DNA of 64,000 nt. It comes from an uncultured Actinomycetes bacterium (GTDB taxonomy: Bacteria; Actinomycetota; Thermoleophilia; UBA2241). The translations under genes and the position numbers were made by a program. Positions 39,412-57,173 of this stretch are shown here, piece by piece. The notes under the pieces are model-generated. The model made no database searches, was not told the origin of the DNA, and was given only the letters and a program-made list of their open reading frames with translations. Position 1 is the stretch's first letter. The number at the start of each line of letters is the position of its first letter. The stretch is taken from positions 46,827-110,826 of the forward strand of contig CAVPVX010000006.1 in the NCBI GenBank assembly GCA_963709345.1. The letters run 5' to 3'.

Positions 39412-41037
39412 ATGATGGCTCCCGCGAGTTCGGCATCAGAAGTGGAGCAGTATCAGATGTACATCGACGGCCGCTGGGTCGCGGCGGCCGATGGCAGGAC
39501 CGACGACATCGTGGATCCCACGTCGGAGGAAGTGATCGCCCGGGTGCCGAGGGCCGGCGTCGCCGACGCGGAGGCGGCGGTCCGCGCCGCCAGGGAGGCG
39601 TTCGACCACGGTCCCTGGCCGCGCATGAAGGCGGTGGAGCGCGCGGAGATCCTGAGGCGGGCCGCCGCCGGGCTGCGCGAACGCTCGGACGAGCTGGCTC
39701 GTCTCGAGAGCATGCAGATGGGCAAGCTGCTCGAGGAGGCGCTGGTGGACATGGACGACACCGCGCACACGTTCGAGTTGTACGCCGGCATGGTCCAGGA
39801 CCAGCACGGAGAGACGCTGGAGGTCCCGGGCGAGACGATGAGCATGGTCGTGCACGAGCCAGTCGGGGTCACCGTGGGCATCACGCCGTGGAACTACCCG
39901 ATGCTGATGGCCGCCTGGAAGGCGGCTCCGTCCCTCGCGGCGGGGAATGTGATGATCCTCAAGCCCGCCAGCATCAGCCCGCTGACCAATCTGGAGCTGG
40001 CGCGCATCTTCGAAGAGGCGGGTCTCCCCAAGGGCGTCTTTCAGGTCGTCACCGGCCCGGGCGTCGAGATCGGCGACTACCTGGCCGGCCACGCCGATGT
40101 GGACATGGTGGCCTTCACCGGCTCCGTCGACGTCGGCAAGCACATCATGCGCAAGGCCGCCGACAACGTGAAGAGGATCGGCTTGGAGCTGGGCGGCAAG
40201 AGCCCGAACATCGTGTTCGCCGACGCCGACTTCGAGGCTGCCATCGACGGCGCGCTGATCGGCATCTTCGCCGGCGCCGGCGAGGTGTGCTCGGCGGGGT
40301 CGCGACTGCTTGTGGAGAGGTCGCTCCACGACCGCTTCGTCGGCGAGCTCGTGAGCCGGGCCATGGCGATCAAGGTCGGCGACCCCCTTGCCCGTGACAG
40401 CGAGATGGGCCCGCTCGTCAGCCGGCAGCAGCTCGAGGCCGTGGACCGGTACGTGCGCATCGGCCTCGAGGAGGGCGCCGCTCTGGCCACCGGTGGTCAC
40501 CGCCTCAACGGCGCCGGGTACTACTACGAGCCCACCATCTTCGTGAACGTCGACAACTCGATGCGCATCGCCCAGGAGGAGATCTTCGGGCCGGTGCTCG
40601 TCGTGATCCCATTCGACAGCGAGGAGGAAGCGGTCCGCATCGCCAACGACACGATCTACGGGCTCGCGGGCGCCGTGTGGACCAAGGACGTCGCCCGGGC
40701 GATGCGCGTGGTCAAGTCCCTGCGCGCCGGCATCACCTGGGTGAACACCTATCACCCCACGTACAGCGAGGCTCCGTGGGGCGGCTACAAGCAGAGCGGC
40801 ATCGGCCGCGAGCTGGGCAGCTATGGTCTCGACGAATACACCGAGGTCAAGCAGATCAATATCGACCTCACCGGCGAGCCGATGGGCGTGTACCAGCGTG
40901 GTAAGGCCGGGGCTGTGGGTGAGGCCACCGGCAGCGGCCGCGGGAGGATCGTGCCGCTCAGCGACCGACGCCCGTTCCGCGAGGGCGACAGCGCGAAGGA
41001 CGAAGCGTGGGTCCAGTTCTGCGAGAACTGCAGCTGA
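39412..41037 (+). CDS. NAD(P)-dependent aldehyde dehydrogenase (betaine/aminoaldehyde DH-like) with C-terminal extension
   Basis: ITPWNYP, FTGS, LELGGKSP, GEVCSAGSR, EEIFGPV, GGYKQSGIGRE. Confidence 0.92.
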   Translation: MMAPASSASEVEQYQMYIDGRWVAAADGRTDDIVDPTSEEVIARVPRAGVADAEAAVRAAREAFDHGPWPRMKAVERAEILRRAAAGLRERSDELARLESMQMGKLLEEALVDMDDTAHTFELYAGMVQDQHGETLEVPGETMSMVVHEPVGVTVGITPWNYPMLMAAWKAAPSLAAGNVMILKPASISPLTNLELARIFEEAGLPKGVFQVVTGPGVEIGDYLAGHADVDMVAFTGSVDVGKHIMRKAADNVKRIGLELGGKSPNIVFADADFEAAIDGALIGIFAGAGEVCSAGSRLLVERSLHDRFVGELVSRAMAIKVGDPLARDSEMGPLVSRQQLEAVDRYVRIGLEEGAALATGGHRLNGAGYYYEPTIFVNVDNSMRIAQEEIFGPVLVVIPFDSEEEAVRIANDTIYGLAGAVWTKDVARAMRVVKSLRAGITWVNTYHPTYSEAPWGGYKQSGIGRELGSYGLDEYTEVKQINIDLTGEPMGVYQRGKAGAVGEATGSGRGRIVPLSDRRPFREGDSAKDEAWVQFCENCS

Positions 41038-41184
41038 CGGGCGCCTGACGGAGGCGCGGCGCGTGAGCCGCAGGGCCCTGCCGGGTAAGCAGGGCTCACG
41101 AGGCGCGCGCCTTCGGCGCGCGGCAGGCACGGTGGCCGGGGCGGCTTCGCCCGCCGGCCAACGGGGAGTTGGGGAGGTCCACAT

Positions 41185-42693
<1,509 letters not shown>

Positions 42694-43002: not shown

Positions 43003-43032
43003 TTGCGCCGACGCTAAGGATTTCCTTACAAT
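43003..43032 (+). promoter_or_regulatory. Housekeeping-type promoter overlapped by a palindrome
   Basis: TTGCGC-N18-TACAAT; near-palindrome TAAGGAtttCCTTA at 43015-43028. Confidence 0.55.
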
Positions 43033-43039
43033 GGCGGAG

Positions 43040-43140
43040 CTTCTCCGAGCGCCGGCTTCCTAAGGGCCTTGGCCTATGGAGCCGGATGCCGGCAGGGTAC
43101 AGCGGGAAACCGCCGTGTCTCCCAGTGCGGAAAGGAGAAG
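43040..43140 (+). ncRNA. Molybdenum/tungsten cofactor riboswitch (MOCO RNA motif, P3-less Wco-type)
   Basis: P1 cttctcc/ggagaag; CTCCGAGC; CCTAAG...TATGG; AGGGT..GGAAAC..CTCCC...GGAAAGGAG; upstream of W transport and moa genes. Confidence 0.88.
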
Positions 43141-43311
43141 GCGACCTTCGGGCCTTTCCGCGTGCGGTGGGCTCTTCTCTTCGCCCCCGTCCGCGGCGCC
43201 GTGTGCACATGGCGGGCCCTCGCCGTCTTCCGCCTCGCCGCTCTCGGACGCACGGCCTCTCGCCCCCTCGCCTCGGGGCAGCGGCAAGGGAACCTGGGGA
43301 GGAGTGAGAGC

Positions 43312-44991
43312 ATGAAGACGAGACTGACCTTGGTGGTGGCCGCCGCGGTCGTGCTGCTGCTGGCGAGCGTCGCCCCGGCGCTGGCGCGCGCGGAGCGGGG
43401 CGGCGACGCCGTCCCCTACGCGTGGCTCCTGCAGTTGCGGGGCGCGAAGAAGCAGACCATGACCAGCATGGCGTTCCGCAACTGGACCAAGCAGCGGTTC
43501 GTCGAGCGGACCGTCGTCGACGACAACAAGACGCCCGACGACCCGAGCGACGACCTCAGCTACACGGGTGTCGCGCTCTGGCGCCTCGTCGGTCGCGTCG
43601 ACGACAAGAACCCGGCGACCTTCAACGTGAAGCGCGCCACCACGGGCGCCGGCTACAACGTCGTCGTGGAGGCCGTCGACGGCTTCAGCGCCGTCTTCAC
43701 CAGTGCCGAGGTCGCGACCCTCAAGAACAAGCTCGTGGTCGCCAACCGCGTCAACGGCGTGCCGCTCGACCTGGGCGCCGCCTCGATCAAGAACGCCGGC
43801 GAGCCGGACCAGTACGCCGCCTGGAAGCCGACCTGGCCGCTCAAGCTGGTCTCCAGTGACGGCAGCATCTTCGGCAACCGCAAGCCGGCGGGCGTGGTGC
43901 GCATCAGCATCGTGCCGGCGACGGCGGACGCCCGCGCGGTCGACGCCGTCCCCTACGCGTGGCTCCTGCAGTTGCGGGGCGCGAAGAAGCAGACCATGAC
44001 CAGCATGGCGTTCCGCAACTGGACCAAGCAGCGGTTCGTCGAGCGGACCGTCGTCGACGACAACAAGACGCCCGACGACCCGAGCGACGACCTCAGCTAC
44101 ACGGGTGTCGCGCTCTGGCGCCTCGTCGGTCGCGTCGACGACAAGAACCCGGCGACCTTCAACGTGAAGCGCGCCACCACGGGCGCCGGCTACAACGTCG
44201 TCGTGGAGGCCGTCGACGGCTTCAGCGCCGTCTTCACCAGTGCCGAGGTCGCGACCCTCAAGAACAAGCTCGTGGTCGCCAACCGCGTCAACGGCGTGCC
44301 GCTCGACCTGGGCGCCGCCTCGATCAAGAACGCCGGCGAGCCGGACCAGTACGCCGCCTGGAAGCCGACCTGGCCGCTCAAGCTGGTCTCCAGTGACGGC
44401 AGCATCTTCGGCAACCGCAAGCCGGCGGGCGTGGTGCGCATCAGCATCGTGCCGGCGACGGGAGCCACCGCGAGCACACCCCCTTCTGAGCAGGCGGCCG
44501 GTGACACATCGACGGCAGGGGCGAAGGCCGCGTCGGACGACCCGCCGGCCGGAGGCTGGACGCTGACCCTGCAAGGCAGGCTCAAGCGCGTGCTCAAGAT
44601 CGCGAAGTTCCCGGTCAAGGTGGCCTGGGACGGCCGCAAGGCGGGCAACATCAACCCTTCGCTGCGGTACGTGTACAAGGGCCAGTCGCTCTACAGGCTG
44701 CTCGCGCTCGTCGACGACAAGCGCCCCCGGTCGTTCAACCTGGCCCAGGCGAAGAAGGGCTACACGATCCAGTTCATCTGTCGCGACGGCTACAAGCCGA
44801 AGATCAAGAGCAGGCAGGTCCTGAAGAACGGCAAGCCGCGCAAGACCTGGATCGTCGCCAAGCTCAAGGCAGGCAAACGGCTTGAAGGTAAGGAGGCCCC
44901 CTTCCGCTTCGTCGGGGGCCCGCCGATCACGCAGCCGTTCAACAACAAGCTGTCCGCCCACGGCGTCATCAGGATACGGCTCATCTTCTGA
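43312..44991 (+). CDS. Secreted protein with three sulfite-oxidase-fold (Oxidored_molyb-like) domains, the first two identical
   Basis: Signal peptide MKTRLTLVVAAAVVLLLASVAPALA; YTGVALWRLVG..VDD, AVDGF, VANRVNG, WPLKLV; third copy YKGQSLYRLL..CRDGY..PFRFV. Confidence 0.75.
   Translation: MKTRLTLVVAAAVVLLLASVAPALARAERGGDAVPYAWLLQLRGAKKQTMTSMAFRNWTKQRFVERTVVDDNKTPDDPSDDLSYTGVALWRLVGRVDDKNPATFNVKRATTGAGYNVVVEAVDGFSAVFTSAEVATLKNKLVVANRVNGVPLDLGAASIKNAGEPDQYAAWKPTWPLKLVSSDGSIFGNRKPAGVVRISIVPATADARAVDAVPYAWLLQLRGAKKQTMTSMAFRNWTKQRFVERTVVDDNKTPDDPSDDLSYTGVALWRLVGRVDDKNPATFNVKRATTGAGYNVVVEAVDGFSAVFTSAEVATLKNKLVVANRVNGVPLDLGAASIKNAGEPDQYAAWKPTWPLKLVSSDGSIFGNRKPAGVVRISIVPATGATASTPPSEQAAGDTSTAGAKAASDDPPAGGWTLTLQGRLKRVLKIAKFPVKVAWDGRKAGNINPSLRYVYKGQSLYRLLALVDDKRPRSFNLAQAKKGYTIQFICRDGYKPKIKSRQVLKNGKPRKTWIVAKLKAGKRLEGKEAPFRFVGGPPITQPFNNKLSAHGVIRIRLIF
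43404..44461 (+). repeat. Intragenic tandem duplication, 537-bp period (521 bp identical by eye)
   Basis: 43404-43924 matches 43941-44461; identical shadow ORFs recur 537 nt apart in the ORF track. Confidence 0.95.
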
Positions 44992-45087
44992 GCCGTTCGC
45001 ATCCCGGCAGCTGCGGCGCGACGGGGGTTTCTCGCCCATTCTCCCCGTCGCGCCGCAGCCGGGAACCCGTCACCGGAAGGAGCCGGA

Positions 45088-46140
45088 ATGAGGATTCGTA
45101 GGATCACGCTGGGGGCGGCGCTGCTCGCGGTCGTCGCGGCGACCGCCGTCCTGGCGGCCGGTGCGTTCGTGCCGGGCGGGGCCCAACAGGCCAAGGCCGA
45201 TGGCGCCGTGGTGCTCACGCTCACGGTCGGCGGCAACGCCACTGAGTTCACGATGGACGAACTGGAGGCCCTGCCCGTCTACGAGGGCTACTCCGGCATG
45301 AAGAACAGCGCCGGTACCGTCTTCCCGCCGGTGCCGGTGAAGGGCGTGAAGCTCACCGATCTGCTCGCCGAGGCGGGCGGTATGACGACGCTCAGTGCCT
45401 GCGACATCACCGCATCCGACAACTACGGGATGACGTACACGTACGACCAGGTCGTCAACGGCAACGGCATCCAGATGTACAACGCGACGACCAAGGCGAA
45501 GGAGGCTCCCAAGGTCCCGTGGTCTCTCGTCCTGATCTACGAGCAGGACGGCGCTCCGATCGCGCCGGCGCCCGGCGGCCCCGGTCCGCTGAGGCTCGTC
45601 GCCGCCCAGGAGACCGATGTGAACCAGGTCGCCGACGGGCACCTGCTCGTGAAGTGGGTCTCGAGGGTCACGTTGCGCGGCGCCGTCAAGGAGTGGAAGG
45701 TCAGGATGTACGGCCTCAAGAAGAAGAACCGTCCGCGCCAGACCACCACGCTCGATCGCACCTCCTTTGACTCCTGCGCCGCCCCCTTCTGTCACGGCTC
45801 GTCCTGGACGAGCTCGGCCAAGAAGATGTGGTCGGGCGTCCCCCTCTTCCTGCTCATCGGCCAAGTGGACGGCGGTCCCAGCCACGACAGCTACAAGGCG
45901 TACAACGAGTTGCTCGCCATCAGGGGCTATCGCATCAAGCTCGTGTCGGCGACCGGCAAGACCGCCATCATCACATCGCGCACGGCACGGCATCGCACCA
46001 GGATCATCCTTGCCAACAAGGTGATGGGGTCAGAGCTCACCACGAGGTACTACCCACTTCGTTTGGTCGGCCCCACGAAGTACGTCCCGTCGCGAAAGAC
46101 GATCGGACGCATCACCAAGATCGTGCTGCTGCCCAAGTGA
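45088..46140 (+). CDS. Secreted protein with two sulfite-oxidase-fold domains
   Basis: FTMDELEALP, KGVKLTDLL, ASDNY, YEQDG, GPLRLV, VKWV; domain 2 CAAPFCHG, WSGVPL, YPLRLVG. Confidence 0.8.
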   Translation: MRIRRITLGAALLAVVAATAVLAAGAFVPGGAQQAKADGAVVLTLTVGGNATEFTMDELEALPVYEGYSGMKNSAGTVFPPVPVKGVKLTDLLAEAGGMTTLSACDITASDNYGMTYTYDQVVNGNGIQMYNATTKAKEAPKVPWSLVLIYEQDGAPIAPAPGGPGPLRLVAAQETDVNQVADGHLLVKWVSRVTLRGAVKEWKVRMYGLKKKNRPRQTTTLDRTSFDSCAAPFCHGSSWTSSAKKMWSGVPLFLLIGQVDGGPSHDSYKAYNELLAIRGYRIKLVSATGKTAIITSRTARHRTRIILANKVMGSELTTRYYPLRLVGPTKYVPSRKTIGRITKIVLLPK

Positions 46141-46171
46141 GCCCGCGACACATGGCTGAAGGAGGCCGACG

Positions 46172-47236
46172 ATGAGCTCGAGCGGTATCGGCGGCGGGCC
46201 GCGCCGGGCGGAGCGCGCCGCCCGCGCCCGGCGCTCGAGGCGGCTGGCGCTGGCCGTGGCGGTCCTGGCCTTGGCGCTGGTCGCGCTGGTCGCCGCCTGC
46301 GGCGACTCGAGCGACCAGTCGCCGCCGTCCCCCGGTCCTTCCGGGCCCGTCGTCCTGACCGTCCGGGGCGAGGACGGGACGGAGACGTTCACGATGAACC
46401 AGCTGCGGGCGCTGCCGGCCTACGAGGGTTACGCCGGCAGCAAGAGCAGCACCGGCGTGATCACCCCGCCCGCAGTGTTCAAGGGCGTGCCGATCGTGGA
46501 GCTCGCCGACCTCGTCGGCGGTATCAGCCGGTCCAACGGCGTGACGATGCTCGCCAAGGACGGCTACGGCATGACGTTCTCGTATCGTCAGATCATGGAG
46601 AGTGGATTCACGACCTACGACCCGGCGACCGGGGAGGAGGAGCCGGCCGACGGCCGGCTCACGGTCATTCTCGCCTACGAGCGTGACGGCGGACCCATCG
46701 GCGAAGACGATGGACCACTGAGGCTCGCCGTCGCCCAGGATGAACCGGCCCAGGTGACCGACGGCCACTGGGCGATCAAGTGGCTCGATACGGTGTCGGT
46801 GACCGAGGCGTCGGCGCAGTGGAAGGTGCAACTCGAGGGCGCGGTGCCCGGCAAGCTGGACCGCGCCGCCTACGTCAACTGCGCTTCACCCGGATGCCAC
46901 GGCTCCGGCTGGGTCGACGCCGACGGCGCACGCTGGGAGGGCATCCCGCTCTATCTCGTCTGCGGTCTCGTCGACGACGCGAAGAAGCATGACGAGGGGG
47001 CCTACGCCGCGGCTCTGGCGGAGAGAGGATACGACATCATCATCGAGACGGTCTCCGGCGAGGTCGTGACCATTGATTCTCGAGACATCGCCGGCCGGAA
47101 CAGCGTCGTCCTCTCGGCGAAGGTCGACGGGGGAGAGTTGCCGGACGAGCACTTTCCCCTGCGGCTCGTCGGTCCGGGTCTGAGCGATGGTCAGATGCCG
47201 GGCGGGATCGCGCGCATCGTCGTGCGCGTGAAATAG
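46172..47236 (+). CDS. Lipoprotein with two sulfite-oxidase-fold domains (paralog of 45088..46140)
   Basis: Lipobox VAAC; FTMNQLRALP, FKGVP, AKDGY, LAYERDG, GPLRL, IKWL; CASPGCHG, WEGIPL, FPLRLVG. Confidence 0.8.
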   Translation: MSSSGIGGGPRRAERAARARRSRRLALAVAVLALALVALVAACGDSSDQSPPSPGPSGPVVLTVRGEDGTETFTMNQLRALPAYEGYAGSKSSTGVITPPAVFKGVPIVELADLVGGISRSNGVTMLAKDGYGMTFSYRQIMESGFTTYDPATGEEEPADGRLTVILAYERDGGPIGEDDGPLRLAVAQDEPAQVTDGHWAIKWLDTVSVTEASAQWKVQLEGAVPGKLDRAAYVNCASPGCHGSGWVDADGARWEGIPLYLVCGLVDDAKKHDEGAYAAALAERGYDIIIETVSGEVVTIDSRDIAGRNSVVLSAKVDGGELPDEHFPLRLVGPGLSDGQMPGGIARIVVRVK

Positions 47237-47248
47237 GGGGCGGCGACC

Positions 47249-48352
47249 TTGGGGTCTGGGGATCGCCGCCGGTGGCTCAGCCCAGCCACGGCCCGGGCCG
47301 TGGCTGGGCTGCTGCTGCTCACCGCCGCGGCCGCGCTGCTCGGCGGCTGCGGCTCAGACGAGCGCCGCGTCAAGCTCATGTACGCCGGTAGCCTCATCGG
47401 TCCGTTCGAGCGCCTGGCGGCGGGGTTCGAGCGCTCTCACCCCGGTGTCGATGTCGTCACCGAGGGCCACGGCAGTATCCAGGTGCTGAGGCACGTCACC
47501 GAGCTCGGTGACCTCGTCGACCTGGCGGTGAGCGCCGACGAGCAGCTGATGGCGCCGTTCTTCTACGAGCGCGACGACCCCGCGACCGGGCGACCGTTCG
47601 CGTCGTGGTACTGCACGTTCGCGACCAACCGCATCGTGCTCGCGATCTCTCCGAAGAGCCCGCTGGCCGGCGAGCTGACCTCGGGCTCCTGGTACCGACG
47701 GCTCACGCATCCCGACGTGCGCTTCGGTCTGTCCGACCCCCGGCTGGATCCCGCCGGCTACCGCGCGCTCATGGTCCTGCAGCTGGCGGAGCGTTACTAC
47801 GGTGCGCCCTTTCTGTTCGAGGACATGGTCATGGGCCGGTTCACGACTCCCGTCATCGTCCGGCACGCCGGGAGGAAGGACGTCATCCGGGTGCCCGAGA
47901 TCCTCGAGACGCGCAGCGGGTCCAATCTGGTGCTGCGGGGCGCCAGCATCCAGCTCGTCGCGCTGCTCGAGTCGGGCGACCTGGACTGCGCTTTCGAGTA
48001 CGAGAGCGTGGCCCGCCAGCACGGGCTGCTCTACGTGCGGCTTCCGGCGGCGGTCGATCTCAGCGATCCGAAGCTGCGGGATGACTACGGGCGCGTGGAG
48101 GTCCAGCTCGACTTCCGCCGGTTCGCGCGCGTGCAACCGCGCTTTCGGGGAGACCTGATCCGCTACGCGTTCACCATTCCCGCCAACGCTCCGGAGCCAG
48201 GGCTGGCTCGCGAGTTCGTGGCCTTCATGCTGGGGCCCGAAGGACGCCGGATCCTCGCAGCCGAACACCAGCCGCTGCTCGCGCCGCCGGATCTTGATGG
48301 GGCGGCGGCCGTGCCGGAGGAGGTGAGGCGGGCATGCGAGGGCTCCAAGTGA
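47249..48352 (+). CDS. wtpA: WtpA-type tungstate/molybdate ABC substrate-binding lipoprotein
   Basis: LGGC; YAGSL, GHGSIQ, SAD, SDPRLDPAGYR, AFEYESVA. Confidence 0.85.
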   Translation: MGSGDRRRWLSPATARAVAGLLLLTAAAALLGGCGSDERRVKLMYAGSLIGPFERLAAGFERSHPGVDVVTEGHGSIQVLRHVTELGDLVDLAVSADEQLMAPFFYERDDPATGRPFASWYCTFATNRIVLAISPKSPLAGELTSGSWYRRLTHPDVRFGLSDPRLDPAGYRALMVLQLAERYYGAPFLFEDMVMGRFTTPVIVRHAGRKDVIRVPEILETRSGSNLVLRGASIQLVALLESGDLDCAFEYESVARQHGLLYVRLPAAVDLSDPKLRDDYGRVEVQLDFRRFARVQPRFRGDLIRYAFTIPANAPEPGLAREFVAFMLGPEGRRILAAEHQPLLAPPDLDGAAAVPEEVRRACEGSK

Positions 48353-48419
48353 GCGTCCTCAGGGATCACAGGCACCCGAAGCGGCTTGAGCATTCCCCGC
48401 ACCCGCCTCACCTGCTCTG

Positions 48420-49226
48420 ATGCGCCGCCGCCGCCCCTCACTCTTCTGGGTACTCTGTACCGCGTCCGGGGGCGTGCTGCTGGCCTTCGTAGTGCTGCCC
48501 GCCGTGAGCATGGTGGTCGGTGCCGGCGCCGGCCTGCTCGGCGAGGCTTTGCGGCAGGACGACGTGCGCCGTTCGCTGATCCTGACGCTGACGGCGGCGT
48601 TCATCGCCACGGCGATCGCCTTCGTCGCCGGCGTCCCGCTCGCCTACCTGCTCGCCCGCAAGGACTTCGCCGGGAAGCGACTCGTTGAGGGAGTCATCGA
48701 CCTGCCGATCGTGTTTCCCCACACGGCCGCGGGTATCGCACTGCTCACGGTCTATGGGCGCCAGGGCGTCATCGGGCGTCTCGTGGCGCCGCTGGGTATC
48801 GAGTTCACCGAGACCGTGGCCGGCATCGTGCTCGCCATGCTCTTCGTGAGCCTCCCGTACCTGGTCGACTCGGCGCGGGAGGCCTTCGCTCTGGTCGACG
48901 AACGCTACGAGCACGTCGCGCGCACACTGGGCTCGTCTCGTGCCGGCGCGTTCGTACGCGTCGCCTTCCCCCAGGCGTGGCGGGGAGTGTTCGCCGGCGC
49001 CGTGCTCATGTGGGGCCGGGGCATCAGCGAGTTCGGCGCCGTCGTGATCCTCGCCTACAACCCGAAGGTGATCTCGGTGCTCACCTTCGAGCGCTTCGAG
49101 GGGTTTGGACTCCGCGCCGCGCAGCCGCCCGCGGTGCTGATCGTCGTCGTGGCCTTCGCCGTGTTCCTGCTGGCCCGCATGCTGCTCGTGCCACGCCGCG
49201 GGCGGAAGCGGAGGGGATCGGCATGA
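48420..49226 (+). CDS. wtpB: Tungstate/molybdate ABC permease
   Basis: DLPIVFPHTAAGIALL, YEHVARTLG, GISEFGA. Confidence 0.85.
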   Translation: MRRRRPSLFWVLCTASGGVLLAFVVLPAVSMVVGAGAGLLGEALRQDDVRRSLILTLTAAFIATAIAFVAGVPLAYLLARKDFAGKRLVEGVIDLPIVFPHTAAGIALLTVYGRQGVIGRLVAPLGIEFTETVAGIVLAMLFVSLPYLVDSAREAFALVDERYEHVARTLGSSRAGAFVRVAFPQAWRGVFAGAVLMWGRGISEFGAVVILAYNPKVISVLTFERFEGFGLRAAQPPAVLIVVVAFAVFLLARMLLVPRRGRKRRGSA

Positions 49227-50299
49227 TCGAACTGAAGGGGCTGGAGATACGAGCGGGGGACCTGGAGGTCGGCCCCATCGACCTCAGCGTCCCGCCCGGG
49301 GCGTACGGCGTGCTTCTCGGCCCCAGTGGAGCCGGCAAGTCGGTCGTGCTGGAGGCGGTCGCCGGGGTTCGCGAGCCGCATGCCGGCGACGTTCGTGTAG
49401 GCGGCCGATCCGTGGTACGACTGCCGCCGGACGCCCGTGGTGTGGGACTCGTCTTCCAGGACGGCCTGTTGTTCCCGCATCTCAGCGTCGCGGCCAACAT
49501 CGCGTACGGAGTGCCGCGCGTTCGCCGAGGACGCCCGCTGGGCCGGCGAGCCGCCGTTCGTGCCGAGGTCCGCAGGTGGGCGAGCGCTCTCGGCGTCGGC
49601 GGTCTCCTCGGCCGCCGGGTGACGACCCTTTCGGGAGGCGAACGGCAGCGCGTAGCGCTGGCGAGAGCTCTGGCGGCCGGACCGGAGGTCCTGCTGCTCG
49701 ACGAGCCGCTGAGCGCGCTCGACGGACCGGCCCGGGACGAACTCAGGGAAGTCCTCCGCGGGCTCTCCGCGGAGTCTGGCCTCAGCGTGCTGCACGTCAC
49801 TCATGACCTCGACGAGGCGGCGTCGCTGGCCCGGGTCTGCGCAGTACTCGGCAACGGTCGTCTGCTGCAGGTCGGAGCACCGGAGGAGATCCTGCGTCGG
49901 CCCGCCTCGGTGGAGGTCGCACGAATCACGGGAGCCGGCAACGTCCTGAGGATCGAGCGAACCTCCGATCCGCTGGCGGTTCGCCTCGAGGGTGGCATCC
50001 TGGCGCGCCTTGCGGCGCCGTGTCCGGATGGTGGGTGTTACGCAGTCATCCGCGCGCACGACATCGTCGTGGAGCCGGGGCCGGCGGCGCCGCACGCCGC
50101 CTGCAATGAAGTCGACGGCATCGTGCGCCGGGTGGTCTCGGGGGCGACGACGACGACGCTGTACGTGGATTCCTCGCCGGCTCTCGTCGTGTCCTGCGGT
50201 GTCGCCACAGCCCGGCAGGCGCCGAACACGGGCGACCGGGTCCGGCTCCGATTCGCCCCGGAGGCGGTTCACATCGTTCCTTCGCCACCGGTAGGATGA
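49223..50299 (+). CDS. wtpC: ABC ATP-binding subunit with TOBE region
   Basis: GPSGAGKS, LSGGERQR, LLLDEP, HVTHD. Confidence 0.85.
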   Translation: MIELKGLEIRAGDLEVGPIDLSVPPGAYGVLLGPSGAGKSVVLEAVAGVREPHAGDVRVGGRSVVRLPPDARGVGLVFQDGLLFPHLSVAANIAYGVPRVRRGRPLGRRAAVRAEVRRWASALGVGGLLGRRVTTLSGGERQRVALARALAAGPEVLLLDEPLSALDGPARDELREVLRGLSAESGLSVLHVTHDLDEAASLARVCAVLGNGRLLQVGAPEEILRRPASVEVARITGAGNVLRIERTSDPLAVRLEGGILARLAAPCPDGGCYAVIRAHDIVVEPGPAAPHAACNEVDGIVRRVVSGATTTTLYVDSSPALVVSCGVATARQAPNTGDRVRLRFAPEAVHIVPSPPVG

Positions 50300-50338
50300 C
50301 GTTCCGCCCGTGAGCGGGCCAGTGTCGGAAGGAGCGCA

Positions 50339-51244
50339 ATGAGTCACTCTCTACCGCCCATCCCATCACGCCGCGTCTGTCGACCGGCCGGCCTATGCGC
50401 GTGGCTCACGGCCCTCGTCGTCATCGGCATCACGGTTGCAGGGTGTGGTTCCGGCGCCTCCGAGCCGCCGGTCTACCGCGACCAGCTCGTGGTGGCCACG
50501 ACCACCAGCCTGAATGACTCCGGCCTGCTCGAGGATGTGGTGCTGCCCGCCTACGAGCGGCAGCACCCCGGCGTCACCGTCAAGGTCGTCGCCGTTGGTT
50601 CGGGCGAGGCCATCGCCATGGGCGCCAAGGGCGAGGCCGACCTGCTGCTCGTGCACTCGCCCGACGACGAGGCGCAGTTCATGGCCGACGGCCACGGCAC
50701 ACTGCGCTTGCCCTTCGCCTACAACCACTTCGTCATCGTCGGGCCAAAGAACGACCCGGCTAAGGTCGCCGCCCTCTCGTCGACGGCCGCGGCGGCGTTC
50801 GCAGCGATCGCCGAGGCAATGCAGCCGTTCGTCTCGCGCGGTGACGAGTCGGGCACCAACAAGAAGGAGCTGAAGCTCTGGGACGCCGCCGGGGTGTCGC
50901 CGGCCGGCGACTGGTATCTGAGCACCGGCCAGGGAATGGGCGAGACGCTGCGCATCGCCAGCGAGAAGCAGGGCTACACGCTCACCGACCTCGGCACGTT
51001 CCTCGCGCAGGAGGAGTCGCTGGACCTGGCCCCGCTCTCCGCCGCCAGCGACGACCTCAAGAACGTGTACGATGCGATCATCGTGAACCAGAATGAGTTC
51101 CCCGCCGTCAACGCCGCCGCCGCTGAGCAGTTCGCGCAGGTGCTCGTGAGTGCGGCGGGCCAGCGGGCGATCGGCGAGTACGGCGAGGCCGAGTACGGCG
51201 CGACGCTGTTCCACCCGTACGCCGAGAGCATCGGCGGCTACTGA
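50339..51244 (+). CDS. tupA: TupA tungstate-binding lipoprotein
   Basis: ATTTSLNDSGLL, VGSG, GEADLLLVH, FVSRGDESGT, GQGMG. Confidence 0.92.
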   Translation: MSHSLPPIPSRRVCRPAGLCAWLTALVVIGITVAGCGSGASEPPVYRDQLVVATTTSLNDSGLLEDVVLPAYERQHPGVTVKVVAVGSGEAIAMGAKGEADLLLVHSPDDEAQFMADGHGTLRLPFAYNHFVIVGPKNDPAKVAALSSTAAAAFAAIAEAMQPFVSRGDESGTNKKELKLWDAAGVSPAGDWYLSTGQGMGETLRIASEKQGYTLTDLGTFLAQEESLDLAPLSAASDDLKNVYDAIIVNQNEFPAVNAAAAEQFAQVLVSAAGQRAIGEYGEAEYGATLFHPYAESIGGY

Positions 51245-51276
51245 GCGGCCGCCCGGGCGGCCGCGGAGAAGGACCG

Positions 51277-51978
51277 ATGCAGATCCTCTGGGACGGCTTT
51301 GTCGAGGCGTGGCGCCTGCTGCTCGGAGGCGACGCGCAGATCCTCCAGATCACCTGGCGTTCGCTGTGGGTCTCGGGTCTGGCGCTGCTCGCGGCCGTGG
51401 TCATGGGCGTGCCGCTGGGAGGTCTCGTGGCGCTGCGCGACTTCCGCGGCCGCCGCTTCACCGTGGCGGCGATCAACACCGGCATGGCTGCGCCGCCGGT
51501 GGTGGTCGGCCTGCTGGTCGCACTGTTCCTCACGCGTAACGGGCCCTTGGGCGACTTCCGGCTCCTGTACACGAACTGGGCCATGGTGATCGCCCAGTTC
51601 GTGATCGCGCTGCCGATCGTCATCGGTCTCTCGCTGGCGGCGCTGCAGCAGCTCGAGCCGGGCCTGCGCCAGCAGATCGCGGCGCTCGGCGCCGGCCGCC
51701 TGCAGGCGTTCCTGCTGCAGCTTCGTGAGATCCGCGTGGCGCTGTTGGCGACCATGATGGCGGCTTTTGGCGCAGTCATCAGCGAGGTCGGCGCCGTGAT
51801 GATGGTCGGCGGCAACATCAGCGGCCAGACGCAGGTGCTCACCGGGGCGATCGTCCAGGAGACGCGCATCGGCCGCTTCGCCACGGCCATCGCGCTCGCC
51901 ATCGTGCTGATGGTGCTGGCCTTCGGCGCCAACCTGGCGCTGACGCTCATCCAGCAGCAGGGGAGGCGGCGCGCGTGA
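51277..51978 (+). CDS. tupB: Tungstate ABC permease
   Basis: PPVVVGLL, FGAVISEVGAVMMVGGNI. Confidence 0.92.
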   Translation: MQILWDGFVEAWRLLLGGDAQILQITWRSLWVSGLALLAAVVMGVPLGGLVALRDFRGRRFTVAAINTGMAAPPVVVGLLVALFLTRNGPLGDFRLLYTNWAMVIAQFVIALPIVIGLSLAALQQLEPGLRQQIAALGAGRLQAFLLQLREIRVALLATMMAAFGAVISEVGAVMMVGGNISGQTQVLTGAIVQETRIGRFATAIALAIVLMVLAFGANLALTLIQQQGRRRA

Positions 51979-52003
51979 GCGCCTCCGCCCGAAGTGCTTC
52001 GGC

Positions 52004-53158
52004 ATGAGCGTCGCCGGTAGAGCGGGACCCCGGGACTACCGTGCTGCCGGCGCCGGCGAGGCGCCGGTGCTCGAGGCGCTCGGCCTGCGCGTCGTCCGCG
52101 GCGGGCGCGTGCTGGCGGCCGCGGACGAGCTCAGCCTGCACGCGGGCCGCGTCCACGTGCTCCTGGGCGCCAACGGCGCCGGCAAGAGCACGCTGCTCAG
52201 GGCGCTCGACGGCCTTGAGCCCGCCGAGGGCGATCTGCGCTTCCAGGGTCGCGACGTCGCGACGGCGGCGGCGCGGCTGGCGTTGCGGCGCCGCACCGCC
52301 GCCGTCTTCCAGAAGGCGTATCTCCTGAACACGACGGTGCTCGGGAACGTCGAGAGTGGTCTGCGTCTGCGCGGCGTGCGGAGGGCCGCGGCCCGAGAGC
52401 GCGCCCGAGCAGCCCTCCAACTGCTGGGCATCGCGCACTTGAGCGAGCGCAAGCCGGCCCACCTCTCCGGTGGCGAATCCCAGCGCGTGAGCATCGCCCG
52501 CGCCCTTGCCGTCGACCCCGTGGCGCTCTTTCTCGACGAGCCTCTGGCGTCGCTCGATCCTCCCACCAGACGTTCCCTCACCGACGAGCTGCTGACCATC
52601 TTCGCCGAGGCGCGGATGGCCGTAGTGTGGGTGACACACGACCGCGACGAGGCGCTCTCCGTCGGCGACACGGTGAGCTTCATCGAGGACGGCCGCATCG
52701 TGCAGTCAGGGCCGGCGCTGGAGGTGCTCGCGCACCCGGCCAGCACGTCGTTCGCAGCCTTCCTCGGTCTGGACACCTATCTCGAGGGCGTGGCGACGAA
52801 CGCGGGCGACGGCGTCACCCGTTTGGCGCTCGCCGGCGGCGCGGTGCTTGCTTGCGGCGAAACGCCTGACGGCCCGGCGGTCGCCTGTCTGCCTCCCGAG
52901 GACGTGGTGCTCTTCACCCAGCCCCCGCCCGAGCACAGCGCCAGTTTGCGCAACCTCCTGCCGGGAATGGTGAAAGCGGCCCGCCCGGCCGGGCGCCTGC
53001 TCCTCGTGACCGTCGTCGCCGACGGCCTCGAGGTGTCGGCCTTGGTAACGAGGGCCGCGTTCGACGATCTGGGTCTCACCGTCGGCGGACCTGTGATCGC
53101 CGCGTTCAAGGCGTCCGCGGTGCATCCGGTCCCCCGACGCGGCAGGCGGCCGGCATGA
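52004..53158 (+). CDS. tupC: Tungstate ABC ATPase with TOBE domain
   Basis: GANGAGKS, LSGGESQR, FLDEP, SLRNLL...FKASAVH. Confidence 0.85.
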   Translation: MSVAGRAGPRDYRAAGAGEAPVLEALGLRVVRGGRVLAAADELSLHAGRVHVLLGANGAGKSTLLRALDGLEPAEGDLRFQGRDVATAAARLALRRRTAAVFQKAYLLNTTVLGNVESGLRLRGVRRAAARERARAALQLLGIAHLSERKPAHLSGGESQRVSIARALAVDPVALFLDEPLASLDPPTRRSLTDELLTIFAEARMAVVWVTHDRDEALSVGDTVSFIEDGRIVQSGPALEVLAHPASTSFAAFLGLDTYLEGVATNAGDGVTRLALAGGAVLACGETPDGPAVACLPPEDVVLFTQPPPEHSASLRNLLPGMVKAARPAGRLLLVTVVADGLEVSALVTRAAFDDLGLTVGGPVIAAFKASAVHPVPRRGRRPA

Positions 53159-53188
53159 GCCGCATCGTTACGGCGAAGGAGGTGCTCC

Positions 53189-53392
53189 ATGGCACTGAGC
53201 GCACGCAACCAGATCCAGGGAACGGTGAAGAGCGTGGTTCTCGGCTCGGTCGTGGCCGAAGTCGTGGTGGACGTCGGCGGCGGGGAGATCGTCTCGATCA
53301 TCTCGCGCCACTCCGTCGAAAGCCTGAACGTCAAGGCCGGGGACACCGTGACCGCGGTCATCAAGGCGACCGAGGTCATGCTGCAGAAATGA
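53189..53392 (+). CDS. Molbindin / Mop TOBE-domain protein
   Basis: LSARNQIQG...AVIKATEV. Confidence 0.92.
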   Translation: MALSARNQIQGTVKSVVLGSVVAEVVVDVGGGEIVSIISRHSVESLNVKAGDTVTAVIKATEVMLQK

Positions 53393-53426
53393 CGCGGCGC
53401 GGGCGCGCAGCTACACTGAGGGTCGC

Positions 53427-54411
53427 GTGAGCCCGGATCCCGACAGACTCCAGAGCAGGGTCGACTACCTGCGACTCTCGATCACCGACAGGTGCAACCT
53501 GCGTTGTACCTATTGCATGCCGCCCGAGGGCGTCCCGGCGAGGGCGCACGGCGAGATCCTGAGTTACGAGGAGCTCGCCGCCTTCACCCGCGTCGCCGCC
53601 GACTGCGGCATCAGCAAGGTCCGTATCACCGGCGGAGAGCCGCTCGTGCGGCTCGGCTGTGCCGACTTCGTCGGCATGCTCAGCCTGTACGAGCGGCATC
53701 CACGACATTTCACTGACGACCAACGGCCTCTTGCTGCCGAGGTACGCCGACGATCTGCGCGCCGCCGGTCTGCGCCGGGTCAACGTCAGCGTCGACAGCC
53801 TCGAGCCGGAGCGCTTCGCGCGGGTCACGCGCGGCGGCCGGCTCGGCGACACGCTCGCCGGACTTGATGCGGCGTTCGCCGCCGGCTTCAGCCCGGTCAA
53901 GATCAACACGCTGCTGCTTCCGGGCGTCGAGGATGAACTCGACGCGTTCGTGGACCTTACGCGGAGCCGCGAGATCCACGTGCGCTTCATCGAGTTCATG
54001 CCCCTCGACCGGCGCGTCGCCGGCGACGACGACACCGGCGGGGCGGGGCGGCTGCTCCCGGCCGGCGAGATCCTCGGACGCCTCATGGAGCGCCACGACC
54101 TCGTGCCTCACGAGGGTCCCTACGGGCACGGCCCGGCGCAGTACTGGCACGCACGCGGCGCACGCGGCACCATCGGCTTCATCGCCGGTGTGTCGGAGCA
54201 CTTCTGCGAGACCTGCAACCGGCTGCGGCTGACAGCGGACGGCAGGCTGCGCACGTGCCTGTTCTCCGGCGCCGAGGTCGACGTACGGCCGTTTCTCGCG
54301 GATCCCGATGCTCTGCGTGCCACCATACGCAAGGCGGTGGCCGGCAAGAGCTACGATCGCTGCCGGGACGCGATCGCGAACCAGCGGTCCATGTCGGAGA
54401 TAGGCGGGTGA
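53427..54411 (+). CDS. moaA: GTP 3',8-cyclase, one-base frameshift near 53686
   Basis: [26 protein letters not shown]; next frame [35 protein letters not shown]. Confidence 0.92.
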
Positions 54412-54415
54412 GGGC

Positions 54416-54922
54416 ATGCCGGAGCTGAGCCACATCGACGAGCGCGGCCGCGCCGCCATGGTCGACGTCGGCGGCAAGGACGAGACGGAGCGCGTCGCCC
54501 TGGCCGAGGCGTTCGTCGTCATGGCGCCCGAGACGCTGGCCGTCATCGAGGACCGGACGACGCCGAAGGGCGACGTGATCGCCGCGGCGCGGCTGGCGGG
54601 CATCATGGCCGCGAAACGCACGCACGAGCTGATCCCGCTGTGTCACCAGCTCAACCTCACGAAGGTGGCCGTGGACCTGGAGCCGGATGTGGGGCTGCCC
54701 GGGCTGCACATCGTCACCGAGGCGCGCCTGTGCGGGCGCACCGGCGTCGAGATGGAGGCTCTGGTCGCCGCGTCGGTCGCGGCGCTCACCGTCTACGACA
54801 TGTGCAAGGCCGTCGACCGGGGCATGGAGGTGACGGGGCTCCGCCTCCTGGAGAAGAGTGGCGGCCGCAGCGGTAGCTGGAAGCGCGAGGCCGACGCGGC
54901 ACAGGGCCGAGAAGCGCCGTGA
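54416..54922 (+). CDS. moaC: Cyclic pyranopterin monophosphate synthase
   Basis: [34 protein letters not shown]. Confidence 0.96.
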
Positions 54923-55881
54923 GCCGGCATCGCGTGGACGGAACCGTCGTCTCGGTCAATGTCGCCGCCGAGAAGGGTGTGCGCAAGGAGCCGGCGGAGA
55001 CGATCAGCCTCGTGGCCGGGCACGGCGTGGAGGGCGACGCGCACTCCGGCCCATGGCATCGTCAGGTGAGCCTGCTGGCCGCCGAGAGCATCGAGAAGAT
55101 GAAGCCGTCCTGTCCCACGGTGGGGCCGGGCGCGTTCGGCGAGAACGTCACCACCGAGGGTATCGTGCTCTTCGAGCTGCCCATCGGCGCGCGCCTGTAC
55201 GCCGGCGAGTGCCTTCTCGAAGTCACGCAGATCGGCAAGGAGTGCCACGACCGCTGCGCGATCTTCCACCAAGCTGGGGACTGCGTGATGCCGCGCGAGG
55301 GCGTCTTCGCGCGCGTCCTCGAAGGCGGCGAGATGGCTCCCGGCAACGGCATCGTCCTGATGAAGCCGAGCCTCATCCACGCCGCCGTCCTCACCGTGAG
55401 CGACAAGGGCTCCCGCGGCGAGCGCGACGACGCGAGCGGCGCGCTGCTGGAGGAGGCGCTCCGGGAGCTCGGTGTCGCCGCCGTGGAGCGCGCCCTCGTA
55501 CCCGATGAGGCAGAACGGATCTCCGCCGAGCTGCGGCGCTGGGCCGACGAGACGCCGGTGAATCTGGTCCTCACGACCGGCGGCACGGGGCTGACGACCC
55601 GGGACGTGACGCCTGAGGCGACACTCGCGGTGCTCGAGCGCCAGGCGCCGGGCTTCACGGAGGCGATGCGCGCCGGCTCGCTCGCCGCGACGCCGCACGC
55701 GATGCTGTCGCGGGCGGTGGGCGGGGCGCGCGGCAAGACGCTGATCATCAACATGCCGGGCAGCCCGCGTGCCTGCCGTGAGCAGTTCGCGATGATCTCC
55801 GCCGCGCTCCCCCACGCCGTGGAGAAGCTGCTCGACCTGGGCGGAGACTGCGCCGCGCCCACGCCGCTCTCGCCCGGTTGA
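54919..55881 (+). CDS. MOSC domain fused to MogA/MoaB molybdopterin adenylyltransferase
   Basis: GDAH, RQVSLL, FGEN, QIGKECH..C, MPREG; then [25 protein letters not shown]. Confidence 0.9.
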
Positions 55882-55939: not shown

Positions 55940-56587
55940 TCAGAAGTCGAGCCGCCGGTGTCGCTGGTAGCTGAGGTACGTGGCCACTGCCGCGTCGGCT
56001 TCCTCGACGGCCCGGCGATGGCCGGCGCTCAGGCGGTCGCCGACGCTCTGGCGGGTCACGCCGAGTCGCTCGGCGACGGCGCGCTGGTGACCGAGCTGCC
56101 GATAGGCGGCGATCGCCTCCCACTGCTTGAGCGTGCGGGCGCGGATCAGCGGGTCGACGAGGTGACACAGCGCTCCCAACAGCACGTCGCCGGCGTCGCC
56201 TGTGCCCAGATACCGTGTCAGCCCTTTGTCGCGGATGACCAACTGCTGGGCGCTTCTCGCCATCGAGTAGGCGTCGCGGTCTCCGGCGCCTCCGTCGCGA
56301 AGAGAGCTCACCGTGCCCACACCGACGCCGGCTCTCAGCAGCATCGGCGCCATCAGTTCGCGAGCGACACTGATGCAGAGCGGCGCCTGCGCCGGGTCGG
56401 CGAGGGCGCCTTCGATACGACCCTCGCCGGTGACCGCGAGCGGCTCGGCGATCGCCGGGAAGAAGATGTGGTTCACTCGCTCGAGGGCGCGGCGCAGCTT
56501 GGCGCCGTCCCGGTCGCCGCCGGCTTCGAGGACGTCGGCGAAGACAACGGCGATGACTTTCGTCTCGCGGCGTTTGTCGATGGGCAT
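55940..56587 (-). CDS. SatD family-like protein with C-terminal HTH
   Basis: ADV, RAGVGVG, AYSMAR, KQWE, QRAVAERLGVTRQSVGDRL. Confidence 0.75.
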   Translation of the reverse strand: MPIDKRRETKVIAVVFADVLEAGGDRDGAKLRRALERVNHIFFPAIAEPLAVTGEGRIEGALADPAQAPLCISVARELMAPMLLRAGVGVGTVSSLRDGGAGDRDAYSMARSAQQLVIRDKGLTRYLGTGDAGDVLLGALCHLVDPLIRARTLKQWEAIAAYRQLGHQRAVAERLGVTRQSVGDRLSAGHRRAVEEADAAVATYLSYQRHRRLDF

Positions 56588-56743: not shown

Positions 56744-57163
56744 TTGAACAAGAACTCGCGTGCTCGACTGCTCATTTCCACCGGCGTCATCGTCGTCTGC
56801 GTCGTGGTCGGCGTCGTCTATCTGGTGCTGCGGCAGGGCGCCTACTACTGCCAGGTCTCAGACCTCACCAGCGGCAAGTACGACGACAAGAACGTCAAGG
56901 TGGGCGGCAGGGTGCTCGACGGCACCATCAAGCGTGACGAGTCGGGTGTGAAGTTCGCGGTCTCCGATCTGACCGGCAAGCCCGACACGGTGTTCGTGTC
57001 GTACGACGGCCAGATGCCGAACACCTTCGAGGCGGGCGCCGACGTGGTGATCGTCGGCCAGTACGCCTCCGCCGACGGCGTCATCACCGCCGACCAGCTG
57101 CAGACCAAGTGTCCGAGCAAGTACAAGGGGCAGGCCTCGCCCGTGGCGCAGCCGGGGCCGTGA
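56744..57163 (+). CDS. ccmE: Heme chaperone CcmE, CxxxY variant
   Basis: N-terminal TM; VGGRV, YDGQMPNTF, KCPSKY. Confidence 0.9.
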   Translation: MNKNSRARLLISTGVIVVCVVVGVVYLVLRQGAYYCQVSDLTSGKYDDKNVKVGGRVLDGTIKRDESGVKFAVSDLTGKPDTVFVSYDGQMPNTFEAGADVVIVGQYASADGVITADQLQTKCPSKYKGQASPVAQPGP

Positions 57164-57173
57164 GGTCCTCTGC

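Follow-up and report, generated by a model that had tools for sequence, protein, structure and literature searches.

Sulfite-oxidase-fold lipoproteins linked to the tungstate transporter WtpABC: a possible new accessory factor of tungsten uptake

Introduction

According to current understanding, a substrate-binding protein, a permease and an ATPase suffice for the uptake of tungsten and molybdenum. Which part could then be played by three exported proteins related to the sulfite oxidase (SUOX) fold, here termed G1, G2 and G3, whose genes lead an operon for two putative tungstate importers, WtpABC and TupABC? The operon is located in a DNA stretch of 64,000 nt (hereafter the window) from an uncultured Actinomycetes bacterium (Thermoleophilia; UBA2241; assembly GCA_963709345.1, contig CAVPVX010000006.1, positions 46,827-110,826 of the forward strand), the genome of which comprises 3.1 Mb and is 98% complete. 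An earlier note, made from the letters of this stretch alone, regarded the three proteins as more likely binders or scavengers of tungstate or of the molybdenum/tungsten pterin cofactor outside the cell than enzymes. The new point emerging from the present analysis is the linkage of the SUOX-fold lipoprotein G3 with WtpABC, suggesting that tungsten uptake is assisted by a protein not described so far.

Linkage of the G3-type lipoprotein to WtpABC

All 13 genes of the operon are co-oriented on the + strand, with intergenic gaps of at most 96 nt and two overlapping junctions, and a scan of the operon for internal terminators returned none that was convincing; the layout given in the earlier note, with wtpABC, tupABC, mop, moaA, moaC and MOSC-mogA following the three leading genes, was confirmed. 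G1 (43312-44991, +; 559 aa), G2 (45088-46140, +; 350 aa) and G3 (46172-47236, +; 354 aa) are succeeded by wtpA (47249-48352, +), encoding a lipoprotein that matches TIGR03730 with 254.6 bits (cut-off 242.75), wtpB (48420-49226, +; best match 266 bits, below the cut-off of 340) and wtpC (49223-50299, +; best match 231 bits, below the cut-off of 440), which together (47249..50299) are predicted to form a tungstate/molybdate ATP-binding cassette (ABC) importer.

This arrangement is not due to chance, as 35 genome loci and 80 metagenome loci (the best 80 of 435 matches) show an identical order of genes. All 32 evaluable genome loci have a co-oriented wtpA gene downstream, the other three of the 35 ending too early for the downstream gene to be evaluated; in a single locus (L031) a tupA gene intervenes. 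Likewise, all 46 metagenome loci that could be evaluated for wtpA, i.e. those with at least 1.5 kb downstream, carry it within 2 kb. The linkage also extends to a second Thermoleophilia family, in which the G3-type gene adjoins wtpABC in 5/5 loci with extra paralogues consisting of domain 1 only nearby, and to Chloroflexota, where four long loci (4/4) display riboswitch, G3-type gene, wtpA and wtpB in this order. In another actinomycetotal genome (L041), two domain-1-like genes are found between a riboswitch and tupA.

Among the sampled genomes of the class, the family is present in 52 of 301, namely in two families (27/55 and 24/55), with none in the ten others sampled; since it was found in just 3 of 401 genomes of a phylum-wide Actinomycetota sample, it is rare outside the two Thermoleophilia families. 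Out of 61 genomes belonging to the window's family, 25 encode both WtpA and G2/G3 and 34 encode neither, while the remaining two contain one WtpA fragment only and one partial domain 1 only, respectively; within the window's genus, WtpA and G2/G3 split 12/25. G2/G3 and WtpA are thus gained and lost together within this family. The seven Chloroflexota genomes (out of 301) with a G3-type gene are the seven with the strongest WtpA matches, and six further genomes hold weaker WtpA-like matches only. The tie to the tungstate transporters proposed in the earlier note is therefore borne out by genome and metagenome loci as well as by phyletic co-occurrence, and a survey of neighbourhoods in Thermoleophilia and Chloroflexota links the G3-type gene to wtpA in both. 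This linkage is the strongest evidence obtained, and the G3-type lipoprotein is a core partner of WtpA in two Thermoleophilia families and in Chloroflexota.

Prediction of a WtpA-G3 complex with custom alignments yielded a result classed as 'weak support', with a median interaction prediction score from aligned errors (ipSAE) of 0.53 (runs 0.46, 0.53 and 0.63) against 0.00 for the best of three controls, a predicted local distance difference test (pLDDT) of at least 82 for the partners and runs agreeing in at least 48% of contacts. In the calibration of this procedure the mark was reached by 58 of 80 solved complexes and by 2 of 110 mismatches, with only 7 of the 80 solved complexes, and both passing mismatches, in the range of ipSAE up to 0.60.

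Domain architecture and export of G1, G2 and G3

Signals of the signal-peptidase-I type were read from the translations of G1 (Sec-type signal peptide) and G2, and lipoboxes from those of G3 (VAAC), WtpA and TupA, in agreement with the export of all three leading proteins that had been noted before. G2 combines an acidic domain 1 with a basic domain 2 containing the motif CAAPFCHG, G3 a domain 1 with a domain 2 containing a Cys-His pair, and G1 consists of three domains related to these second domains. In the following, the first domain of G2/G3 (alignment A2) is denoted type A; type B covers domain 2 of these two proteins (A3) together with the G1 domains, both the repeated one (A5) and the last one (A4). 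PF00174 matches G2 with 39.3 bits and G3 with 37.0 bits (cut-off 24), in two stretches each, and no Pfam match was obtained for G1; hence, the earlier count of 3+2+2 related domains is right by homology, although Pfam recognises only G2 and G3. In profile comparisons using hhalign, the G1 domains match the second domains of G2/G3 at 98.8% (E 5.8e-17) and 99.4% (E 1.8e-21), by which the type-B groups appear clearly homologous to each other, while types A and B give a weak match (37%, E 3.5e-4) and 11 of 17 second domains match PF00174 below threshold. A search with G2 returned 175 relatives, and many of its relatives are labelled 'DMSO/TMAO reductase YedYZ catalytic subunit' by the Joint Genome Institute (JGI).

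Charge differs strongly among the C-terminal domains. Domain 3 of G1 has an isoelectric point (pI) of 11.3 and a net charge of +15 to +29 (29 orthologues), and domain 2 of G2 a pI of 10.8 and a net charge of +11 to +27 (28 orthologues), while domain 2 of G3 is close to neutral. As judged from composition, the cationic C-terminal domains probably hold the unanchored G1 and G2 on the anionic envelope.

Domains 1 and 2 of G1 are an exact tandem duplicate of 537 bp (43404-43940 and 43941-44477, 100% identical). In three related loci (L003, L004 and L015) the two G1 copies are identical within each genome and different between genomes, in four others (L011, L017, L023 and L032) they diverge, and L001 has a single copy. 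Concerted evolution, duplication on several occasions or a collapsed assembly could each explain this pattern.

Domain 1 retains the sulfite oxidase fold without its molybdenum ligand

The AlphaFold model of mature G3 has a mean pLDDT of 76.2, with most of domain 1 at 85-95 and residues 157-186 and 212-219 below 50; the model of G1 reaches 45.5. With the G3 model as query, Foldseek retrieved 44 matches from the PDB (E <= 0.001); all matches listed at that threshold (to rank 42) are entries of the sulfite oxidase family or of PruR. Structural alignment, in which the matched part of domain 1 spans model residues 1 to about 157/165, placed PruR 7kp2 first (Z 15.3, root-mean-square deviation (rmsd) 2.7 Å, 132 of 138 residues), followed by chicken sulfite oxidase 3hbg (Z 14.9, rmsd 2.5 Å), SoxC 2xts (Z 14.7), the PruR entries 7kos (Z 14.4), 7kom (Z 14.3) and 7rkb (Z 14.2), plant sulfite oxidase 1ogp (Z 14.0) and YedY 1xdq/1xdy (Z 10.5-10.7), whereas unrelated chains scored Z <= 3.2. 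According to the model, domain 1 of G3 thus has the fold of the molybdenum cofactor (Moco) domain of SUOX enzymes, trimmed to the size of PruR, as the earlier assignment to this fold had anticipated. The domain 1 profile also matches the sequence of PruR 7kom in the PDB (E 1.5e-4); a further match of this profile, to a WD40 protein (5yzv), is repeat-like and was discarded as spurious.

In the first domains, no conserved Cys is present among 17 sequences. The position of the Cys loop is taken by a G-x-K-S-S-T-G loop, while the D-G-Y and K(W) motifs are kept, with Asp, Tyr and Lys conserved in 99%, 94% and 90%, respectively, of 109 first domains of the wider family. The absence of the Mo-ligating Cys, as claimed in the earlier note, accordingly holds for the first domains, but the second domains of G2/G3 keep a conserved Cys-His pair.

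Known extracytoplasmic Moco enzymes are exported in folded form by the twin-arginine translocation (Tat) system. A twin arginine is not conserved in the N-termini of G1, G2 and G3 orthologues, where RK, HK, YR, RN, NR, KR and others occur instead; in comparison, the one strong PF00174 gene of the same genome (L055:961-1836) combines TRRRLL with the Mo-Cys motif HCVEGWS. Export of G1-G3 through Sec argues against a cofactor inserted in the cytoplasm, which their N-termini make very unlikely, and the three proteins are probably cofactor-free. As already stated in the earlier note, neither a dimerisation domain nor MsrQ is encoded in the operon, nor is any redox partner found there by Pfam, and the sole PF01794 match of the genome sits on another contig (C11).

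A conserved Cys-His pair in domain 2

In the Thermoleophilia set, domain 2 contains an invariant C-A-x-P-x-C-H-G motif resembling CX4CH; in G2, C230, C235 and H236 are invariant in 16 sequences. Across 15 transporter-linked G3-type proteins from two phyla, the C-H pair is invariant (15/15), while the first Cys is replaced by Gly in 5/15. Heme c binding at CX4CH was ruled out on the grounds that the first Cys is not conserved and that the downstream cytochrome c maturation genes are a synteny shared among close relatives; a conserved disulfide was excluded in view of the same variable Cys. In a broader sample, the 149 top-ranking representatives (see below) with their 313 type-B domains, the His is kept in 263 domains (84%) and the Cys in 102 (33%). 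When A3 is aligned by hhalign with the genome's own SUOX enzyme, the Cys of the C-H pair falls on the Mo-ligand Cys, albeit at a probability of 27% only (E 6.7e-4, 119 columns), and whole-protein as well as domain 2 profiles retrieve sulfite oxidases from the PDB only at weak E-values of 0.03-0.09. Furthermore, many loci encode a related small lipoprotein between the G3-type gene and wtpA, in which the His of an 'EHPKKG' motif aligns with the Mo-Cys of SoxC (E 0.005). The recurring feature at the old metal position would hence be a His, with or without Cys.

In nineteen metagenome loci (including L127:3663-4145), the G3-type gene and wtpA are more than 450 nt apart, and most of these loci encode this extra lipoprotein of about 150 aa, a short SUOX-like domain with the motif series EHPKKG ... 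DGY ... CxDC ... WVK; in a few of the 19, the longest frame shows no extra lipoprotein. The G3-type protein of L127 additionally carries such a short SUOX-like domain as a C-terminal fusion.

Riboswitch and leader

Upstream of G1, cmscan identified a riboswitch aptamer of the Moco/tungsten cofactor (Wco) class (RF01055) at 43031..43153 on the + strand (60.6 bits, gathering score 36, E 4.5e-12). The P3 columns of the model are gapped in the alignment of this aptamer, i.e. the P3 stem is absent, which verifies the P3-less riboswitch described in the earlier note. The leader or expression platform (43154..43311, +; 158 nt) contains only a weak 5-bp hairpin directly after the aptamer (43157-43171). 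In its minimum free energy and centroid folds a pyrimidine-rich stretch pairs with the GGGGAGGAG Shine-Dalgarno sequence, the whole leader folding no better than shuffled sequences (z-score -0.16).

A second RF01055 match in the same genome (contig C3:43872-44033, corresponding to L136:273-434) has a 40-nt P3 insert and precedes modA (TIGR01256, 147.7 bits), modB, modC and a MobA/MobB fusion gene. Hence, one genome uses a P3-bearing riboswitch for molybdate genes and a P3-less one for tungstate genes, in line with the suggestion by Regulski et al. that the tungsten cofactor is the ligand sensed by P3-less RNAs. In that study, P3-less Moco/Tuco RNAs are linked to tungsten cofactor and OFF-switch logic is demonstrated for the E. 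coli moaA riboswitch (Regulski et al. 2008; PMC2408646).

Regarding distribution, 16 genome loci of the window's family type were scanned, and RF01055 lies upstream of G1 in 13 of the 15 that could be evaluated, L027 and L031 being negative upstream, also on rescan. Among the metagenome loci, a riboswitch is found upstream in 17 of 37 evaluable ones using a covariance model built in this analysis. Riboswitch control, as envisaged in the earlier note for the operon, therefore holds for most loci of the window's type but not for the second Thermoleophilia family (0/5), nor for all metagenome loci; within the family of proteins it is frequent, yet non-universal. Riboswitch matches in Chloroflexota measure 137-155 nt compared to 123 nt in the window, and from this length the aptamers are read as keeping P3. 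In two Chloroflexota loci, a GGAG of the aptamer is positioned a few bases before the ATG, as expected of a Shine-Dalgarno role.

Further riboswitches were seen in three loci. Tandem aptamers (L104:2095-2214 and 2326-2445) lie ahead of a WtpA-like and a G3-type gene. In L023, a second riboswitch (3664-3818; 155 nt) precedes a single gene resembling domain 3 of G1 (4395-4802) and two ABC ATPase-like genes, giving a further transporter context for the type-B domain. In a genome of the second family, a Moco riboswitch (L037:7081-7218, -) is found just upstream of an NAD-type aldehyde dehydrogenase (ALDH) gene. Two genes for NAD-type ALDHs also lie directly upstream of the operon in the window (39265-42693); such enzymes might serve as a cofactor-independent backup for tungsten-dependent aldehyde:ferredoxin oxidoreductases (AORs) when the cofactor is scarce.

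Proposed function and alternative explanations

Taken together, we consider it an even call that G1-G3 act as a cofactor-free extracytoplasmic module for capture and hand-over of ligand in tungstate import by Wtp/Tup. Exported unfolded via Sec, the three proteins would act outside the membrane beside the tungstate importers, chiefly WtpABC, where the G3-type lipoprotein, anchored next to the WtpA lipoprotein, would hand its ligand to WtpA. G1 and G2 may be lineage-specific, unanchored additions that are probably retained on the envelope by their cationic C-terminal domains. The P3-less riboswitch would shut the operon when cofactor is present, such that the proteins are made only under scarcity of tungsten cofactor. 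The ligand would most likely be tungstate or molybdate, or a bound form that WtpA cannot take directly: an oxyanion or tungsten/molybdenum complex is favoured because the constant partner is an oxyanion transporter, because the SUOX pocket is ancestrally an oxo-metal/oxyanion site and because the Cys loop is replaced by a loop of Lys, Ser, Thr and Gly. Extracellular scavenging of whole Moco/Wco, which the earlier note had also considered, found no support.

Several observations weigh against such a capture module. Both samples are biased, the genome loci coming from related genomes and thus being non-independent, and the metagenome loci being the 80 closest of 435 matches. RF01055 is missing directly upstream of the G3-wtp operon in all five loci of the second Thermoleophilia family, and a riboswitch is missing in 20 of the 37 evaluable metagenome loci, 18 of which are Rfam-negative as well. 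Archaeal WtpABC is not known to need a partner of this kind. The Cys-His pair could, from its conservation, mark a catalytic or cofactor site, and in the G3 model its loop in domain 2 (residues 157-186) has a pLDDT below 50, with structural matches reaching residues 1-206 only. Moreover, the A-B module itself, as far as its sequence relatives indicate, is not tungsten-specific but also builds giant surface proteins. A representative library contains 1501 matching proteins at E <= 0.001, a number that falls to 900 at <= 1e-10 and to 398 at <= 1e-30. Single A-B proteins account for 56 of the 149 best representatives; the other 93 join A and B domains in arrays or in other ways and reach up to 3139 aa, and several of 14 scanned carry PKD, CBM96, NosD, DUF2341 or CarboxypepD_reg domains. 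The structural neighbours of a homologue (P0163) in the ESM Atlas are of the PF00174 type only and include fusions with SLH, PEP-CTERM and FMN_bind, the latter hinting at redox roles. This broad extracellular use of the A-B unit keeps explanations by redox chemistry or by a surface module alive.

A rather unlikely alternative is an extracytoplasmic redox or processing enzyme, whose Cys-His site, alone or together with domain 1, would convert thio-, reduced or organically bound tungsten or molybdenum species to the oxyanion taken up by WtpA, or would serve another redox reaction of the envelope. The invariance of the Cys-His pair in all transporter-linked G3-type proteins across phyla, the alignment of its Cys with the Mo-ligand Cys, the frequent His in type-B domains, the Oxidored_molyb plus FMN_bind fusion cluster among the Atlas neighbours and the System I cytochrome c maturation cluster just downstream would all suit such an enzyme, but no electron-transfer partner is encoded in the operon, two thirds of the type-B domains lack the Cys, the alignment to the Mo-Cys is of low confidence, neither heme c nor a disulfide is conserved, and the maturation cluster is a neighbour common to close relatives. 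Distinctly unlikely is a PruR-type function, in which domain 1 would bind a free pterin, or else a degradation product or precursor of the cofactor, either for salvage or as a signal tuning the transporter. A pterin as ligand is favoured by the likeness to PruR: its chains are among the top structural matches (Z 14.2-15.3), the domain 1 profile finds 7kom, G1-G3 are exported and Cys-less like PruR, and the Tyr that stacks on the pterin aligns with the invariant Tyr of D-G-Y. Yet, no importer for Moco or molybdopterin (MPT) is known, the constant partner here is an oxyanion transporter rather than a pterin carrier, a DcpA-type partner is absent from the operon, the Asn of PruR is an Asp here, and no counterpart of its replacement of Cys by Trp is apparent. 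The shared Tyr does not discriminate either, as it is conserved in Moco enzymes too, according to the PruR report (PMC11194511).

The A-B unit might also be a generic cell-surface or structural module for envelope building or adhesion, with its place in the operon reflecting envelope remodelling. Although the large arrays, the accessory domains in the few proteins scanned and the SLH and PEP-CTERM clusters among structural neighbours are in its favour, this is highly improbable, given that a single-unit lipoprotein is linked to wtpA in every evaluable locus and is gained and lost along with it, and that the putative Shine-Dalgarno sequence in Chloroflexota lies inside the P1 stem of the riboswitch. 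Already disfavoured and barely credible are genuine Moco/Wco-dependent envelope oxidoreductases similar to MsrP/YedY: PF00174 scores above cut-off, the model matches YedY at Z 10.5-10.7 and JGI names many relatives accordingly, whereas the twin-arginine signal is not conserved, domain 1 is devoid of a conserved Cys, neither MsrQ nor a heme partner is encoded in the operon, and the genes would be off when cofactor is present and are co-inherited with the transporter.

As a bolder version of the capture and hand-over module, it is tentatively possible that the G3-type lipoproteins constitute a new class of tungstate/molybdate-handling proteins, i.e. an ancient Mo-enzyme fold minus its pterin cofactor, the remodelled pocket of which binds the metal oxyanion, bare or complexed, outside the cell and feeds WtpA, with G1 and G2 as envelope-retained 'tungstophores'. 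Domain 1 would then contribute its K-S-S-T-G loop to the pocket and domain 2 its His/Cys site, and bacterial WtpABC would be a system of four or more components in at least two phyla.

Other genes of the operon and its surroundings

Downstream of wtpC, tupA (50339-51244, +; lipobox; NF041772 as best named match with 184 bits, below the cut-off of 400), tupB (51277-51978, +; best named match 164 bits, below the cut-off of 320) and tupC (52004-53158, +) are predicted to encode a second tungstate ABC importer (50339..53158). They are followed by a gene for a mop/Tub-type single-TOBE molbindin of 67 aa (53189-53392, +; TIGR00638, 69.3 bits, cut-off 55); a precedent for tungstate storage by Tub is given in PMC11980592. 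The operon is completed by moaA (53427-54411, +), moaC (54416-54922, +) and a MOSC-MogA fusion gene (54919-55881, +), the latter two assigned by Pfam/NCBIfam profile matches. While the moaA gene listed in the earlier note is present according to profile search and comparison with an 88%-identical relative (L001), it is frameshifted in this assembly, as one extra base near 53686 splits the frames; a relative's contig is likewise one base shorter at 53686. Logan contigs from four DNA runs span neither the frameshift nor the junction of the G1 duplication in the same strain. A second copy of moaA was not found by tblastn in the 98%-complete genome. Either the frameshift stems from an error of assembly, or the organism, which depends on the cofactor, truly has moaA as a pseudogene.

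An open reading frame of 215 aa (55940-56587, -) separates the operon from ccmE; it has no Pfam or NCBIfam match, but 25 related loci share it with 60-86% identity. Directly downstream of the operon (56744-63849), the window contains a cluster for cytochrome c maturation of the System I type (ccmE, ccmF, ccmA, ccmB and two ccmC-like genes) and hemA, syntenic in about 20 related loci. Elsewhere, the genome encodes five AOR-family enzymes (PF02730), three PF00384 molybdopterin oxidoreductases and one Tat-exported SUOX enzyme (contigs C10, C11, C4, C5, C3). From this gene content, the organism appears to be a heavy user of both tungsten and molybdenum for a 3.1-Mb genome.

Comparison with known systems

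In the open literature searched, subscription journals and supplements lying outside the search, no described helper for tungstate or molybdate transporters was found, nor was a link between the SUOX fold and tungstate transport, including the accessible parts of PMC6147048 and PMC13259868. If the proposed role is correct, the WtpABC-linked family adds a missing step to tungsten uptake, i.e. the capture of scarce or complexed tungsten in soils and sediments, and represents a second non-catalytic use of the sulfite oxidase fold after PruR. It would also provide an example, open to experiment, of how the fold of an enzyme came to serve as a binder of the very metal its ancestor used. In addition, the names 'YedYZ catalytic subunit' and 'molybdopterin-dependent oxidoreductase' are probably wrong for hundreds of proteins in the databases.

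Operons under Moco/Tuco riboswitches resemble the present one in having a P3-less aptamer before genes for tungstate transport and MPT synthesis. In the accessible text of PMC2408646, however, the term 'sulfite oxidase' does not occur, the S. wolfei operon is described with 'other genes of unknown function' only, and exported SUOX-fold proteins as leading operon genes are not described.

The closest known counterpart is PruR of Agrobacterium tumefaciens and other Proteobacteria (PDB 7kos, 7kou, 7kom, 7kp2 and 7rkb), which the earlier note overlooked when stating that no system of this kind had been described. As reported in PMC11194511, PruR is a secreted, Cys-less SUOX-fold protein in which a Tyr and a Trp enclose the bound pterin and which passes its signal on to DcpA. 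Both PruR and the proteins studied here share Sec-type export and a truncated SUOX fold lacking the Mo-ligating Cys, which in PruR makes up nearly the whole, non-catalytic protein. Its structures align with domain 1 of G3 over 127-132 of 134-146 residues, and PruR N-x-Y corresponds to D-G-Y with the stacking Tyr kept. In contrast, PruR is a single domain of about 170 aa encoded with the GGDEF-EAL sensor DcpA and acting in signalling, whereas G1-G3 measure 350-559 aa, comprise two or three domains including a type-B domain with Cys-His, occur as lipoprotein or cationic secreted forms, and are encoded next to wtpABC/tupABC and genes for cofactor synthesis, in many cases behind a Moco/Wco riboswitch and with no GGDEF/EAL gene in the operon by Pfam.

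Compared to the sulfite oxidase family (1sox/3hbg, SorA 2blf, SoxC 2xts, YedY/MsrP 1xdq), domain 1 has the fold (Z 10.5-14.9, rmsd 2.1-2.5 Å), G2/G3 match PF00174 above cut-off, and the PLRL, DGY and KW motifs are held in common. Domain 1 of G2/G3 differs in lacking Mo-ligand Cys, Tat signal, dimerisation domain and redox partner, while the genome's true family member (L055:961-1836) exhibits all expected features.

With respect to the principle proposed here, a parallel exists in accessory periplasmic metal-binding proteins of ABC importers, such as ZinT with ZnuABC. Although fold and metal are unrelated, in both cases an extra extracytoplasmic binder, made under scarcity of metal or cofactor, would feed the cognate substrate-binding protein.

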